Assembly (NCBI RefSeq): GCF_006345805.1
Contig: NW_021824882.1
Coordinates: 1 to 17,215, forward strand
DNA: 17,215 nt
Direction: 5' to 3'
Source of the DNA: Octopus sinensis
Lineage: Eukaryota
This document shows, one piece after another, positions 544-13,402 of the stretch (its first letter is position 1; each line of letters opens with the position of its first letter). Under the pieces are notes generated by a model. It was not told the origin of the DNA. It saw only the letters and a program-made list of their open reading frames with translations, and searched no databases. The position numbers and the translations under genes were made by a program.

Positions 544-1190
544 GCAATTAAGACAACTACTTAATAAGGAAAACTTAACAAGAAATTGTCAGGTAGATAG
601 CGTGAAAACCTCATAAGAGAAAAAATTTCGAATAATTATTTCTTATTGAACATATTAATTTAGATATAGAGGGCATTATACATACATGCCAGATGCATTA
701 TACATACATGCCACACGCTAAGAGGGACAATTAGTCATTTCTACCAAAATATTACTAATCCCATCGAATGCAATTTTTCAAGTAAGACATTTAAAAAAAT
801 AGACCTGTATCACAGTGATTTCATACTTACGTATTCATCAGCAGCCTGGATGTATCATACATAAACGACCCTGCCTCGCTTAAGCCGATCAGCTAACTGA
901 TCAACATCAACGAAGCACATGGGTGAGTTTACATATATTACATCCGGTAAATGGCCGACTTTTACGAATTGCATTTCGGGAAAGGAAAAGTTTTTTCGGA
1001 ATAAAAATTTAGCAATTAAGGACAACTACTTAATAAGGAAAACTTAACAAGAAATTGTCAGGTAGATAGCGTGAAAACCTCATAAGAGAAAAAATTTCGA
1101 AAATAATTATTTCTTATTGAACATATTAATTTATATATAGAGGGCATTATACATACATGCCAGATGGCATTATACATACATGCCACACGC
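542..1190 (-). mobile_element. ~1.4 tandem copies of a ~467-bp hammerhead-containing unit (retrozyme / Penelope-like pLTR-type), ribozyme sense on minus strand
   Basis: TAGCAATTAAG(G)ACAACTACTTAATAAGG starts at 542 and again at 1010 (period 468). The second copy stops at ...TGCCACACGC (1190). The block is the reverse complement of the unit at 1209-1968. Confidence 0.85.
801..847 (-). ncRNA. Type I hammerhead ribozyme motif (unit copy, stem I lacks one C)
   Basis: Minus strand reads AGGCTG-CTGATGA-ATAC-GTAA-GTAT-GAAA-TCAC-T-GTGA-TA-CAGGTCT. Core is intact; the stem I 5' arm is one base shorter than in the plus-strand copies. Confidence 0.75.
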
Positions 1191-1307
1191 ATGTAATATA
1201 TGTAAACACGGATGTAATATATGTAAACTCACCCATGTGCTTCGTTGATGTTGATCAGTTAGCTGATCGGCTTAAGCGAGGCAGGGTCGTTTATGTATGA
1301 TACATCC

Positions 1308-1355
1308 AGGCCTGCTGATGAATACGTAAGTATGAAATCACTGTGATACAGGTCT
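1308..1355 (+). ncRNA. Type I hammerhead ribozyme
   Basis: Stem I AGGCCTG(1308-1314)/CAGGTCT(1349-1355), 7 bp with one G-U. Core CTGATGA 1315-1321. Stem II ATAC/GTAT with GTAA (GNRA) loop. GAAA 1334-1337. Stem III ATCAC-T-GTGAT. NUH triplet AUA, predicted cleavage after 1348. Confidence 0.9.
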
Positions 1356-1773
1356 ATATTTTTTAAATGTCTTACTTTGAAAAATTGCATTCGGTGGGAT
1401 TAGTAATATTTTTGGTAGAGATGACTAATTGTCCCTCTTAGCGTGTGGCATGTATGTATAATGCCATCTGGCATGTATGTATAATGCCCTCTATATATAA
1501 ATTAATATGTTCAATAAGAAATAATTATTTTCGAAATTTTTTCTCTTATGAGGTTTTCACGCTATCTACCTGACAATTTCTTGTTAAGTTTTCCTTATTA
1601 AGTAATTGCTAAATTTTTATTCCGAAAAAACTTTTCCTTTCCCGAAATGCAATTCGTAAAAGTCGGCCATTTACCGGATGTAATATATGTAAACTCACCC
1701 ATGTGCTTCGTTGATGTTGATCAGTTAGCTGATCGGCTTAAGCGAGGCAGGGTCGTTTATGTATGATACATCC

Positions 1774-1821
1774 AGGCCTGCTGATGAATACGTAAGTATG
1801 AAATCACTGTGATACAGGTCT
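1774..1821 (+). ncRNA. Type I hammerhead ribozyme (identical second copy)
   Basis: Same sequence as 1308-1355, 466 nt downstream. CTGATGA at 1781-1787; predicted cleavage after 1814. Confidence 0.9.
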
Positions 1822-2289
1822 ATATTTTTTAAATGTCTTACTTTGAAAAATTGCATTCGGTGGGATTAGTAATATTTTTGGTAGAAATGACTAATTGTCC
1901 CTCTTAGCGTGTGGCATGTATGTATAATGTCATCTGGCATGTATGTATAATGCCCTCTCTATATAAATATAATATATATAATATATATATATATAGATAT
2001 ATATCGCATATTCATACATACACACATAAATACATGTTGTGCACATGTGTCTATGTAGTGCCTTCAACGTCTTTGTTACAGCTGCCGGATAATAGTATCC
2101 GATCAGCCTCCATTCTCTCCAACTATTTTGGGGAAAGAAAAATAACCCATAACTGGCGAAGTCGTCGACATGTTTTTTCCAAAGATTAGTTTACAGACCC
2201 GGCTAAGCGTTTACTTCTATTGTTTCCGGACACAGAGCTCACAAGGCAGACATTTATATCAGTAGATTTACAAGCTAAACGTGTAATCA

Positions 2290-2958: not shown

Positions 2959-3359
2959 ACGGCGAGCTGGCAGAAACGTTAGCACGCCGGGCGAAATGCG
3001 TAGCCATATGTCGTCTGCCGTTACGTTCTGAGTTCAAATTCCGCCGAGATCGACTTTGCCTTTCATCCTTTCGGTGTCGATTAAATAAGTACCAGTTACG
3101 CACTAGGGTCGATATAATCGACTTAATCCGTTTGTCTGTCCTTGTTTGTCCTATCTGTGTTTAGCCCCTTGTCGGTAATAAAGAAATAGGTGTTTCGTCT
3201 GCCGCTGCGTTCTGAGTTCAAATTTCGCCGAGGTCGACTTTGTCTTTCATTCTTTTGGGGGTCGATAAATTAAGTACCAGATGCGTACTGGGATCGATCT
3301 AATCGACTGGCTTCTCCCGCCCCCCTCAAATTTCGGGCCTTGTACCTAAATTAGAAAAG
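2959..3359 (+). mobile_element. Composite/dimeric SINE family A with 11-bp TSD
   Basis: Full copy (GGCGAGCTGGCAGAAACGTTAGC...GAGTTCAAATTCC...AAAGAAATAGG) at 2959-3190, then a headless copy at 3191-3359. AATATGGCAAG at 2948-2958 and 3360-3370. Confidence 0.9.
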
Positions 3360-5094: not shown

Positions 5095-5386
5095 TGCTGG
5101 TCTTCATTAAACAACCTTGCCCGGAGTTGTGCCTCGGAGGGGAACTTTCTAGGTGCAATCCCATAGCCATACAGGACCGAAGGGGATCTTTGCCCTGTTA
5201 ATTAACCTATAGAAGGGACTCTGAAATGTCCCTACTTCTCTTGGTCAGAACAGGCGTGTGAAAAATAGTTGCTAAGAGGTGCTTTCACACTCCTCGGAAG
5301 CCAGGAACTCTCGAACAAGGAACAAAGAACCCTCCCCTCCACACAACCGGAAGCAGTTTAGTCGTACTCAGGATATTTACTCTAGC

Positions 5387-5781
5387 GGAGGCGCAATGGC
5401 CCAGTGGTTAGGGCAGCAGACTCGCGGTCATAGGATCGCGGTTTCGATTCCCAGACCGGGCGTTGTGAGTGTTTATTGAGCGAAAACACCTAAAACCTCC
5501 ACGAGGCTCCGGCAGGGGATGGTGGTGATCCCTGCTGTACTCTTTCACCACAACTTTCTCTCACTCTTCCTGTTTCTGTTGTACCTGCATTTCAAAGGGC
5601 TGGCCTTGTCACTCTCTGTGTCACGCTGAATATTCCCGAGAACTACGTTAAGGGTGCACGTGTCTGTGGAGTGCTCAGCCACTTACACGTTAATTTCACG
5701 AGCAGGCTGTTCCGTTGATTCGGATCAACCGGAACCCTCATCGTCGTAACCGACGGAGAGCTTCTAAAAAAAAAAAAAAAA
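5387..5781 (+). mobile_element. Full-length young tRNA-derived SINE (family C head, tail type 2) with poly(A) and 12-bp TSD
   Basis: A box TGGCCCAGTGG, B box GTTTCGATTCC, pure A run 5766-5782, perfect ATTTACTCTAGC at 5375-5386 and 5782-5793. Confidence 0.95.
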
Positions 5782-6017: not shown

Positions 6018-6425
6018 GCAGTAAGCTTGCAGAATCGTTAGCACGCCGGGCAAAAATGGTTAGTGGCATTTCGTTTGTCTTTACGTTCGAATTCCAGCAG
6101 GGACGACTTTGTCTTTCATTCTTTCAGGGTCGATAAAATAAGTACTAGTTGAGTGGTAGTGGGGCGACAAGCTGGCAGAAACGTTAGCACGCCGGGCGAA
6201 ATGCGTAGCTGTATTTCGTCTGCCGTTACGTTCTGAGTTCAAATTCCGCCGAGGTTGACTTTGCCTTTCATCCTTTCGGGGTCGATAAATTAAGTACCAG
6301 TTACACACTGGGGTCGATATAATCGACTTAATCCGTTTGTCTGTCCTTGTTTGTCGTATCTGTGTTTAGCCCCTTGTGGGTGGTAAAGAAATAGGTAGTG
6401 GGGTGTCGATGTAATCGACTTATCT
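6018..6425 (+). mobile_element. Old SINE family A copy with a younger family A copy (6163-6395) nested in it
   Basis: Host head/body at 6018-6160 resumes as GTCGATGTAATCGACTT after 6403. GGTAGTGGGG duplicated at 6155-6164 and 6394-6403. Confidence 0.9.
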
Positions 6426-7620: not shown

Positions 7621-8099
7621 TTATTTATTTATGTATAATATGTTTATGTACTTGTTTGTTTGTTTGTGCGTGCACGTGTCTGTACAATGGTCAGAAAAAA
7701 CCCAAATGTAGGGAATATGAAGTTGCTCTGCCTCTGCAAAAACGGTGTATTTATTGGCGAAGTGTAAAGTCAGTTAATATTTTGGCACCTTTGGGAGGAG
7801 AAGAATTTCAGGTGTCTTAGACAAAGTGTTTCTTAAGGAAGCAAGATAAGTTTCTATTTGACAAATGTCTGCGCGATCTTTGAGAAGAAAACACTTAAAA
7901 AATGTGCCAAAATGTGTTTAAAATGTGTGAATGTGACCCAAAGATCTAGCGGTTTGGTGAGGGAAACCATTATGAAGAAAATCGCTATAACACTTTCGTG
8001 ACGGTGTTCCATTTCCAGAAAAATCAATATTTTGAATCGTAATGGAATTGTCAGTGCCAAGAGATTGGGAATATCAGGAATTGTACGTGTGGTGAGGAT

Positions 8100-8417
8100 A
8101 GAAACAACATCAACAACAATGATGAGAACGGCGGCGGCGACGGTGATGGTACCAACAACTACAAGAAGAACAACGACAGCAGCGGAAGCACTAATAGCAA
8201 CAAGGACAGTGTAGAGGGCGGTAGAAACAGCAAAGTTAGCAACAAGAACAAGAACAACATCAACAAGAACAATAACAACAACAACAACAAGAGCAACAAC
8301 AATCACAATAACAGCAGCAGCAGCAACAACAACAACGACAGCTTCAACAATAACAACAACAACAACAACAATCACAATAACAGCAGCAGCAACAACAACA
8401 ACAACAACAATGACAGC
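8100..8417. repeat. Degenerate (CAA/CAG)n trinucleotide repeat
   Basis: Read directly; gives the poly-V and poly-T ORFs. Confidence 0.95.
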
Positions 8418-8785
8418 GGAGGCGCAATGGCCCAATGGTTAGGGCAGCGGACTGGCAGTCGGAGGATCGCGGTTTCGATTCCCAGACCGGGCGTTGTGTG
8501 TGTTTATTGAGCGAAAAACACCTAAAGCTCCACGAGGCTCCGGCAGGGAGTGGTGGCGACTCCTGTTGTACACTTTCGCTCCAACTTTCTCTCACTCTTT
8601 CTTCCTGTTTCTTGTCCCCGACTTCCTACGCAACCGCTGAGCCTGGATGCGAATTCATCCATCCGTTGATGCTCTCGGTGTCAGGGGTTGACCTGATTTC
8701 TCTTCTGCGGGTCTTACGAAGAGCAAAGGACCACGGTTCGGTCTTCTCCCATCTTGCGAGCTCTGGGACGAAGACCGTTCGCTCA
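8418..8785 (+). mobile_element. tRNA-derived SINE, family C head with tail type 3, followed by (CAA/CAG)n
   Basis: Head/body nearly the same as the 5387 copy up to ...TTCCTGTTTCT (~8612), then an unrelated 3' sequence. Confidence 0.9.
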
Positions 8786-8859
8786 ACAGCAACAGCAGCA
8801 ACAACAGTGGCAGCAGTATCAAAAACAACAGCAATAATAACAACAACAACAACGACAGT

Positions 8860-9318
8860 GGAGGCGCAATGGCCCAGTGGTTAGAGCAGCGGACTCGCGG
8901 TCGTAAGAACGCGGTTTCGATTCCCAGACCGGACATTTTGAGTGTTTATTGAGCAAAAACACCTAAGCTCCACGAGGCTCCAGCGGGGTGGGATGGGGTG
9001 AACCCCGCTGTACTCTTTCTTCCTACTTCTGCCAGTAAGCAGAGGGACCATGGTGTAACCCATTATAGTGAGGTAAACTTTCAGACCCTAGTCTAGATTG
9101 CGAATCCTCTGTACCCCAGGATGGTTCAGCTCTCCACCCGTTAAGAAAAAGCCACCGTTTACGGAATGAGGATAACAACGTAGCTTTCACGCCCGTGCAA
9201 CCGCCAGTCTATCGCGTGTGGTGGGTGGATCTTAAAGTTGCCACACGCATTCTTAGTAGCTTAGAGTAGGCTCGAATTAGAGATTATTCTTTGTGGCTAA
9301 TGGCGTGGGTCCTGATTG
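8860..9318 (+). mobile_element. tRNA-derived SINE, family C head with tail type 4, followed by (GAA/GAT)n to ~9420
   Basis: Same head/body to ~9025, then ~290 bp of different sequence ending at a trinucleotide tail. The 3' boundary is inferred. Confidence 0.75.
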
Positions 9319-10202: not shown

Positions 10203-10851
10203 AGGTGGTGAGCTGGCAGAACCGTTAGCTCGCAGGGCGAAATGCTTAGGGGTATTTCGTCTGTCTTTACGTTCTGAGTTCAAATTCCGCCGAAGTTGAC
10301 TTTGCCTTTCATCCTTTCGGGGTCGATAAATTAAGTACCACTTGCGTACTGGGGTCGATCTAATCGATTAGTCCCCTCCACCAAAATTTCGGGCCTTGTG
10401 CCTAGAGTAGAAAAGAATATAAAGACGGCGAGCCGGTAGGAACGTTAGCACGCCGGGCGAAATGTTTAGCACTATTTCGTCTGCCGTTACGTTCTAAGTT
10501 CAAATTCCGCCGAGGTCGACTTTGCCTTTCATCCTTTCGAGGTCGATAAATTAAGTACCATTTACGCACTGGGGTCGATGTAATCGACTTAATCCCCTTG
10601 TCTGTCCTTGTTTGTCCTCTCTATGTTTAGCCCCTCGTGCGCAATAAAGAAAGTATAAACGTTAGCATGTCGGGCGAAATGCTTAGCGACATTTCATCCG
10701 TCTTTACGTTCATGGTTCAAATTCCGCCAAGTCGACTTTGCCTTTCATCATTTCGGGGTCGATAAATTAAGTACCACTTGCGTACTGGGGTCGATCTAAT
10801 CTATTGGTCTCCTCATCAAAAATCTCGGGCCTTGTGCCTAGAGTAGAAAAG
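10203..10851 (+). mobile_element. Head-to-tail trimer of SINE family A inside one 17-bp TSD
   Basis: Copies at ~10203-10418, ~10423-10655 and ~10658-10851 (5'-truncated). AATATAATCTTAGAATA at 10186-10202 and 10852-10868. Confidence 0.92.
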
Positions 10852-11631
10852 AATATAATCTTAGAATATATTTAAATACAAACCGGTTTATGAATTTGAA
10901 TCAATGGAGCAATACGATCATGTGAACAAAAGGATTCGGAAAAATAAAGCAATTTTTATCTGAGACAGACCGACATCTTTGATTATATATTTGCGCCTGT
11001 CTAGATGTCGAAACCAGCAGTTTCACTAAAATATACACCAATTTTACTAGTCAATATTACTAATCTACACTAATATCACATCAAACGTCCTTTAGATCTT
11101 TAAGCATGGCTAGCGATCACTCTTCTGAGCGAATTTTGTGTCACAATGGGCAACTTTGATGAAGCCTTATTGTTTGCTTCAGAAAGCATATTACTTTTCT
11201 AAGAAATGTAGAGCTATTGAAATGGTTTATAATTTTGATCAGGTTGTATCGCTGAACAGCTGAAATTTCCGGGAGATGAATAATTTACACAGTCAAGAAA
11301 TTCATTTGTTTGTGACGGTCGAAGAAGAAATTACAGCGGTGAGGTTAAGTTTAAGCTCGTCTTCAAATTGTATGAGTTTTACTGCACAAAATAAATTTAC
11401 AACATTCTTTTGTACATCGATACCCATCCAACAACCAACCCAACGTCATCAAACATGTGCCAATAAGCGTCAGCAAGAGGACAAGTATATTTAGTTTGTA
11501 ACGAAACCATCTTCAGTATCTTGTAGAGTATTGGATAACACCACAACACTTTCAGAGTATATTTTGAAATCGAGAGACAAATAAGAGACCCCTAACGTGT
11601 CTCATTAGAAGTACTAGATAAGGTACAGATA

Positions 11632-13091: not shown

Positions 13092-13402
<311 letters not shown>

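Follow-up and report, generated by a model that had tools for sequence, protein, structure and literature searches.

A hammerhead-bearing non-coding repeat of Octopus sinensis, probably inserted in trans by Penelope-like machinery, and a LINE nested in it

The 17,215-nt stretch of Octopus sinensis DNA analysed here (the window) contains a tandem repeat that carries hammerhead ribozyme motifs and has no coding capacity, which raises the question of how it moves. A first-pass annotation, made from the letters alone, had suggested a retrozyme, whose read-through transcript would release a monomer to be circularised and re-inserted by a reverse transcriptase (RT) acting in trans. This suggestion was followed up in the window and across the genome.

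The element in the window and its hammerheads

Two identical hammerheads had been claimed at 1308-1355 and 1774-1821, 466 nt apart, and this was borne out; both sit within a 294-nt direct repeat with 3 mismatches. The extent originally given to the element, 1209-1968, has to be revised, since it corresponds to the direct arm of a larger structure, whose inverted arm and third hammerhead had been overlooked. The whole element spans 544-1968 and is a head-to-head inverted insertion inside (TA)n, with three hammerheads. Its features are the following:

483-543, no strand: left (TA)n target microsatellite
544, minus strand: outer end of the inverted arm, equal to end site 2 (unit position ~415), adjoining (TA)n
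544-1190, minus strand: inverted arm, 5'-truncated, ~1.35 units (self-BLAST, inverted repeats)
801-847, minus strand: third hammerhead, one base short in the 5' strand of stem I (motif scan)
1185-1228, no strand: inversion junction, head to head, with a 21-nt duplication (TRF, sequence)
1209-1968, plus strand: direct arm, ~1.65 units
1308-1355, plus strand: type I hammerhead 1, 48 nt, predicted cleavage after 1348
1349-1814, plus strand: predicted monomer RNA, 466 nt in the window
1446-1492, plus strand: two 23-nt direct repeats (TRF, sequence)
1600-1610, plus strand: 10-nt deletion, private to this unit (alignment)
1774-1821, plus strand: type I hammerhead 2, identical to hammerhead 1, predicted cleavage after 1814
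Outer end of the direct arm, plus strand: equal to end site 1 (unit position ~295), merging with (TA)n
1960-2004, no strand: right (TA)n target microsatellite

The 466-nt spacing is correct for the window but not as the size of the family: in the fetched loci (overlapping loci kept in) the hammerheads were 473-477 nt apart in 94 of 114 cases and 466 nt apart once. The shorter period in the window is due to the 10-nt deletion in one unit; the full sequence at this site is kept in the inverted arm. Several homopolymer shortenings in the inverted arm suggest that the base missing from stem I of the third hammerhead is an assembly error. The element has a low GC content (32-33%) and is non-coding, with all six frames closed and no ORF of 100 aa across it. 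The idea that the minus strand of the unit holds a degenerate GIY-YIG tail was given up on account of the closed frames and an empty PLE (Penelope-like element) protein search of the window. The base step 1469|1470 (unit position 261|262), which is a LINE junction in eight other loci (see below), is empty in the window.

Other repeats were seen in the same stretch. Minimal hammerhead-like cores belonging to other repeat families lie at 13152 (plus strand), 4871 (minus) and 17112 (minus), and the first recurs beside several PLE loci. A SINE-like repeat of ~220-230 nt has dispersed and tandem copies at 2960-3191, 6165-6396 and 10206-10855, and a 188-nt repeat, whose head looks tRNA-like by eye, occurs three times (5384-5571, 8415-8602 and 8857-9044). 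The 155-codon asparagine-rich open frame at 8043-8510 is composed of (AAC)n and is probably a microsatellite artefact.

Each of the two intact hammerheads consists of a 7-bp stem I (one G-U pair), CUGAUGA, stem II (AUAC/GUAA/GUAU), GAAA and AUCAC-U-GUGAU, and an AUA cleavage triplet precedes each predicted cut site. A structure descriptor run over the window matched at these two places and nowhere else, and gave no match in 3000 dinucleotide shuffles of the unit. In Rfam, no hammerhead family was found at E<=10 over 780-1900, or at E<=1 across the window. The pair 10.1-11.1 is A-U instead of the usual G-C, which counts against the ribozyme reading, and no canonical contact between loops 1 and 2 is evident in the hammerhead sequence. 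The description of stem III as AUCAC-U-GUGAU was accurate, but the 1-nt loop assigned to it cannot form; in the monomer, stem III would have 4 bp and a 3-nt loop.

The earlier view that cleavage would be favoured in dimers is backed by folding prediction. The active fold of a lone ribozyme makes up ~1% of the predicted ensemble, because the core mispairs with stem III, and the cofold minimum of two ribozymes is a double hammerhead (-31.1 versus 2 x -12.1 kcal/mol). These predictions agree with the dimer model for metazoan type I hammerheads, as set out in the accessible text of PMC4209133. According to the part of Li et al. 2026 (10.64898/2026.07.22.740005) available to us, only one of nine Xenopus dimers tested was cleaved, which counts against a required role of the ribozyme. 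The predicted monomer RNA is strongly self-paired (-142 kcal/mol, z -8.15, none of 100 shuffles as low).

The first-pass annotation had proposed to compare the conservation of the hammerhead core with that of its surroundings, and the outcome was divided. Across 102 distinct, related copies, differences were counted in 4 of 1294 cells at the 13 core positions (0.31%), compared with 1.45-2.03% elsewhere. The whole 48-nt ribozyme, in contrast, varies by 1.0%, a value matched by 34% of other 48-nt windows, and the test as a whole is equivocal. Within the ribozyme, variation is greatest at unit position 134 (window 1342), in the centre of the stem III palindrome, where 18 of 100 copies have G for T. 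Words of the unit were looked up in sequencing runs: a fraction of 0.36-0.61 was present in 14 runs guessed to be RNA, and next to none in 4 more. Contigs from three guessed-RNA runs and one unclassified large run covered the unit partially and at low depth, so that ends, strand and circles are not resolvable from them.

Insertions across the genome and their probable mover

Counts for the family were taken across the 2.72-Gb genome. A 39-nt ribozyme string occurred exactly 481 times (its reversed control, 0 times), and a search with the unit gave at least 187 matches, on many contigs, among the best 39 of 1224 candidates. The claim of a mobile tandem unit that has no coding capacity and carries a single type I hammerhead is supported.

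Fifty distinct insertions were mapped. They are a non-random sample, drawn from the best unit matches, the first exact ribozyme matches on contig 1, LINE-bearing loci and long arrays. Thirty-nine were two-armed, with the arms head to head, and 36 could be seen over their full length. All but two of the 36 had an arm ending at ~292-300 of the unit opposite an arm ending at ~413-422 (34 insertions), and in none was the same end site used twice; the exceptions are L228, which is interrupted, and L031, where the end lies in another element. In a few insertions that lack one of the 23-nt repeats, the site-1 end maps near 261 instead. The two fixed end sites leave a tail, ~120 nt long, at one end only. 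The outer ends of the insertions adjoin (TA)n. The inner ends of the arms are scattered, with no pile-up at the cleavage site, and arms reach up to 12 units.

Among 127 long units, the 264 pairs from one and the same locus diverged by 0.8%, and the 7737 pairs from different loci by 2.1%. When haplotypes were read in 20 loci, both arms carried a single haplotype apart from single changes and one locus, L104, which mixes two. One unit haplotype recurs at several loci.

This anatomy resembles that of EN+ PLEs, for which PMC8557442, in its accessible text, describes partial tandems, a truncated copy in inverted orientation, a tail that is confined to one end and a bias towards microsatellites. In vitro, the protein of the one PLE studied in PMC11167929 cuts AT-rich DNA by nicks in both strands and extends each of them, and two internal RNA start sites explain the tail, as far as the accessible text of that paper goes. 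The two fixed end sites of the present insertions fit such a mechanism, although with a longer tail. The proposal of an RT supplied in trans is thus supported, and the insertion anatomy narrows the mover to PLE machinery. We consider it highly probable that the ~475-nt repeat is reverse-transcribed and inserted in trans by a PLE, that is, that it is a non-LTR retrozyme and a non-autonomous PLE. The alternative classes set against each other in the first-pass annotation, retrozyme and PLE terminal repeat, are in current literature largely one class (Li et al. 2026, in the part available).

Candidate movers are present in the genome. A young PLE family (family A) has RT ORFs of 784 aa, TA flanks and inverted arms, and its relatives carry a GIY-YIG annotation; two further families, C and D, are likewise present. 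The search for an autonomous partner covered these three families, with only the best candidates scored in each search. Neither the family A loci (6 long and 30 short) nor those of families C and D (30 each) showed a PLE end resembling the unit; the matches seen in PLE loci were neighbouring copies of the unit or of its sister family, or weak AT-rich similarity. At a single locus, L033, a truncated family A arm faces an arm of the unit, with a short piece of family A at the joint, an arrangement consistent with the family A enzyme having switched templates. Copies attached to an ORF with RT and GIY-YIG domains, which the earlier reader had suggested looking for, were not found in the 50 insertions, and L033 is a chimera. 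Hammerhead-like cores starting with UUGA instead of CUGA were noticed in families A and C (L094:5150-5210 and L179:3340-3380); that of family A reads like the U3-A8 variant described for Schistosoma.

A sister retrozyme family, with a 493-nt unit 62-66% identical to the ~475-nt unit, was found at L033:4315-4920 (G000:C1 near 64.84 Mb). A first look gave 1849 candidates, mostly of one to two units and older (92-97% identity). Inspection by eye of 20 loci revealed ten insertions with two arms, each of which had mixed ends, and most ends were flanked by TA. The sister hammerhead keeps the core and the AUCAC/GUGAU arms, and its stems I and II differ in sequence and still pair. The self-pairing predicted for its monomer is weaker in score (z -2.5). 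Another non-coding element with a hammerhead, ~420 nt long, unrelated to either family and ending in (TA)n, was noted at L031:6851-7368 and in the left flank of L156; in one composite it is fused to the 5' end of the LINE described below.

The cycle that we propose for the ~475-nt unit would start with transcription of a tandem copy. By folding and by analogy, two hammerheads would then pair through their palindromic stem III and excise monomers, which a host ligase, again by analogy, may close into circles. The RT-GIY-YIG protein of a PLE would nick both strands of a TA tract, and one cDNA would start at ~295 and another at ~415; the ends at these positions are observed, and their origin as RT start sites is suggested by PMC11167929. 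Each cDNA would run for a variable length, up to 12 units, probably round one template in a putative rolling circle, and the two would be joined head to head, the arrangement observed in the insertions.

The same mover could also do without the ribozyme. If the hammerhead were a passenger, uncut multi-unit transcripts of a few master arrays would be the templates and no circle would be formed. A single haplotype over 12 units suits rolling-circle copying but equally a homogeneous master array, read-through of which would also yield one-haplotype loci; this counts against the cycle described above, as do the two haplotypes mixed at L104, the recurrence of one haplotype at several loci, the scattered inner ends and the ordinary conservation of the ribozyme as a whole. 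Moreover, another PLE inserts uncleaved RNA in vitro with no need for ribozyme cleavage (PMC11167929, accessible text). On the other hand, the core positions are several times less variable than the rest of the unit, the sister family has retained the core while its stems were rebuilt, and arms of 10-12 units would require 5-kb RNAs that evade a dozen ribozymes. Taking these points together, we regard a passenger hammerhead as rather unlikely, though a serious contender.

It is clearly improbable that the unit serves as pseudo-LTR to an autonomous PLE family outside our sample, most copies being 5'-truncated relics. The anatomy would equal that of truncated PLEs as PMC8557442 presents them in its accessible part, and our sampling of three families, with the best candidates scored, leaves room for such a family. 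None of the 50 insertions, however, has an upstream ORF of its own, an arm that exceeds one period goes on into a further unit, up to 12 times, and the sole locus joined to a PLE is a chimera in which the PLE family differs from the unit in its 3' end. A DNA satellite with a chance ribozyme-like motif, spread through unequal crossing-over or other copying at the DNA level, would account for the homogeneous units within arrays but is scarcely credible and already largely refuted by the end-site rule. The insertions are short and dispersed, their outer ends are fixed at two sites while the inner ends vary, they have inverted arms and lie in TA targets, and the motif did not arise in the shuffled units. 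PLE machinery acting in trans on a retrozyme thus remains the preferred reading.

A LINE inserted in the unit

In two of the first loci, the foreign sequence following unit position 261 was identified as the 3' end of a young LINE that runs opposite to the unit. This LINE is 5.3 kb long, has an ORF1 with a zinc knuckle and an ORF2 with AP endonuclease and RT, and lacks a poly(A) tail; an intact ORF2 of 1129 aa is present at L103. The only named invertebrate match of a co-resident LINE protein was from Argonauta, and no named Tx1 reference was among the matches. We provisionally call the element Tx1-like. The junction between LINE and unit lies at one nucleotide in eight cases genome-wide, among 70 exact LINE 3' ends. 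Two of the eight LINEs are full length and flanked by 13-14-bp duplications; five others have lost unit sequence, their 5' end being joined to a more downstream part of the unit, and in one the 5' end joins another hammerhead-bearing element.

The eight loci span at least five unit haplotypes, and the piece of unit adjoining the LINE matches its own locus, rare variants included. These insertions are therefore mostly independent, and a role of the LINE as a 3'-transducing carrier of the unit was rejected on the same match. At L101 the junction between the LINE 5' end and the unit is present on both arms, so that this composite was re-copied in PLE fashion. If the same had happened more generally, all eight loci could derive from one composite moved whole rather than from repeated targeting; the common 5' junction of L103 and L105 and the position of the LINE, always in the innermost unit (rough p ~0.01, from hand-counted sites), would agree with this. 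We consider such an origin unlikely in view of the haplotypes, which differ even between L103 and L105, of LINE 5' ends that range from 3149 to 5282 nt, and of the tree, in which the eight LINEs are not one clade (2 changes forced). In the preferred reading, as a further step of the cycle, the inserted unit becomes the target of a tail-less LINE sub-lineage at 261|262, as observed at 8 loci.

Flanks were read for 43 of the 70 LINE 3' ends. Two lie at one nucleotide of the sister family and four at one nucleotide of another repeat, and the remaining flanks mostly end in TAGT or AACTCC-like motifs. Where readable, these motifs lie inside 13-17-bp duplications and thus are target DNA; the possibility that they are part of the LINE was rejected for this reason. 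Exact duplications of 13-17 bp were found in 6 of 18 loci (six others ran off the locus end, four had none and two were short or imperfect) and, in a second set, in 5 of 13 sequence windows (five lacked the LINE 5' end, two were imperfect and one had none). No RNA family was detected by Rfam in 20 LINE-flank loci. The LINE 3' ends include a cluster of 22 at G000:C28:4.37-5.50 Mb and one of 4 at C2:195.34-195.38 Mb, where the flanks read share the end AACTCCA or AACTCCG in a diverged local repeat.

A tree of 31 LINE copies was built (12 were left out as too short), with a bootstrap that had not fully settled. The four flank classes (25 rows) need 3 changes on this tree, which is the minimum; the mean after shuffling was 13.9 and none of 200 shuffles was as low. 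Since kin share labels, this result shows clustering only. Outside the motif, however, most TAGT sites are unrelated to one another, the exceptions being two pairs with common flanks, and hitch-hiking therefore cannot fully explain the pattern.

The endonuclease differs between target classes. E15 together with D23 was found in all 7 unit-inserted copies with a readable endonuclease, and K15 with N or H23 in 8 of 8 copies that sit elsewhere. Judged by its 3' end, the AACTCCA class falls within the unit-inserted copies, yet it has the other allele plus T14. The evidence leans towards target choice set by endonuclease residues; the alternative is pairing of read-through flank RNA, and R1Bm is reported to need downstream target RNA or flank pairing (cited in the accessible text of PMC7265360).

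Taken together, the data allow a three-tier parasitism to be put forward, as a tentative scheme: a PLE retrozyme copied by rolling circle from two fixed start sites, one per arm, would be the specific target of a LINE sub-lineage, and the LINE family would switch its motif between sub-lineages 1-4% apart through one to three endonuclease residues or through pairing of the read-through 3' flank, having been PLE cargo at least once. By the Kojima criterion a target-specific family has more than 20% of its copies in one target; with 8 of 70 3' ends in the unit the LINE lies below this value, and it is specific at the level of the sub-lineage only.

Relation to known systems

The retrozyme class has already been published (PMC7229834; Li et al. 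2026), and the window element is a real, young member of it. Our literature search found no paper on this particular family and none on a LINE that targets a retrozyme; Repbase, Dfam and most subscription journals, and for the family also some supplements, lay outside the search, and the family may be listed there. The repeat itself is therefore unsurprising, and its value is that of a test system, being young (units ~2% apart) and short. Two points of PLE biology appear in it unusually cleanly, namely that each arm has its own start site and that an arm can hold many identical units. A 475-nt RNA, together with an intact PLE protein from the same genome, would allow the proposed circle-template model and the origin of the head-to-head inversion to be tested. 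As for the nested LINE, its endonuclease has natural variants that differ by a few residues and are tied to different target motifs, and these bear on how LINEs acquire and change site specificity.

With the non-LTR retrozymes, as the accessible parts of PMC7229834 and Li et al. 2026 present them, the family shares a non-coding tandem unit with one type I hammerhead, low GC, a self-paired monomer (here by prediction), co-existing PLEs and a proposed status as non-autonomous PLE derivatives. At ~475 nt the unit exceeds the 170-400 nt of PMC7229834 but is within the 51-972 bp of Li et al. 2026. A difference is that no pLTR homology to an autonomous PLE was found in the three families sampled, and the PLE link rests here on insertion anatomy.

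The likeness to EN+ PLEs (PMC8557442, PMC11167929 and PMC4209133, each in its accessible text) covers the partial tandems, the inverted 5'-truncated copy, the one-end tail and the microsatellite bias named above, as well as a hammerhead with a palindromic helix III. Unlike these elements, the unit has no ORF, its tail measures ~120 nt instead of the 30-40 nt described in PMC8557442, its hammerhead has a full helix III and is not minimal, and its arrays reach up to 12 units.

The trans-mobilisation of gene cargo by pLTRs described for the rotifer Adineta vaga (PMC3846280, accessible text) has a counterpart in L101, where a 5.3-kb cargo is framed by direct and inverted unit repeats; in this one case the cargo is a full-length LINE and the frame a non-coding retrozyme. 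Tx1-clade LINEs are known to target other transposons, Tx1L being found in Tx1D and Tx1-Mar in Mariner-N4 (PMC4494074, accessible text). Like them, the octopus element is an AP-endonuclease/RT LINE that recurs at one position of a mobile element and makes 13-17-bp duplications. It differs from them in that its target is a retrozyme, and in that its sub-lineages, ~96-99% identical, each keep a different target motif.
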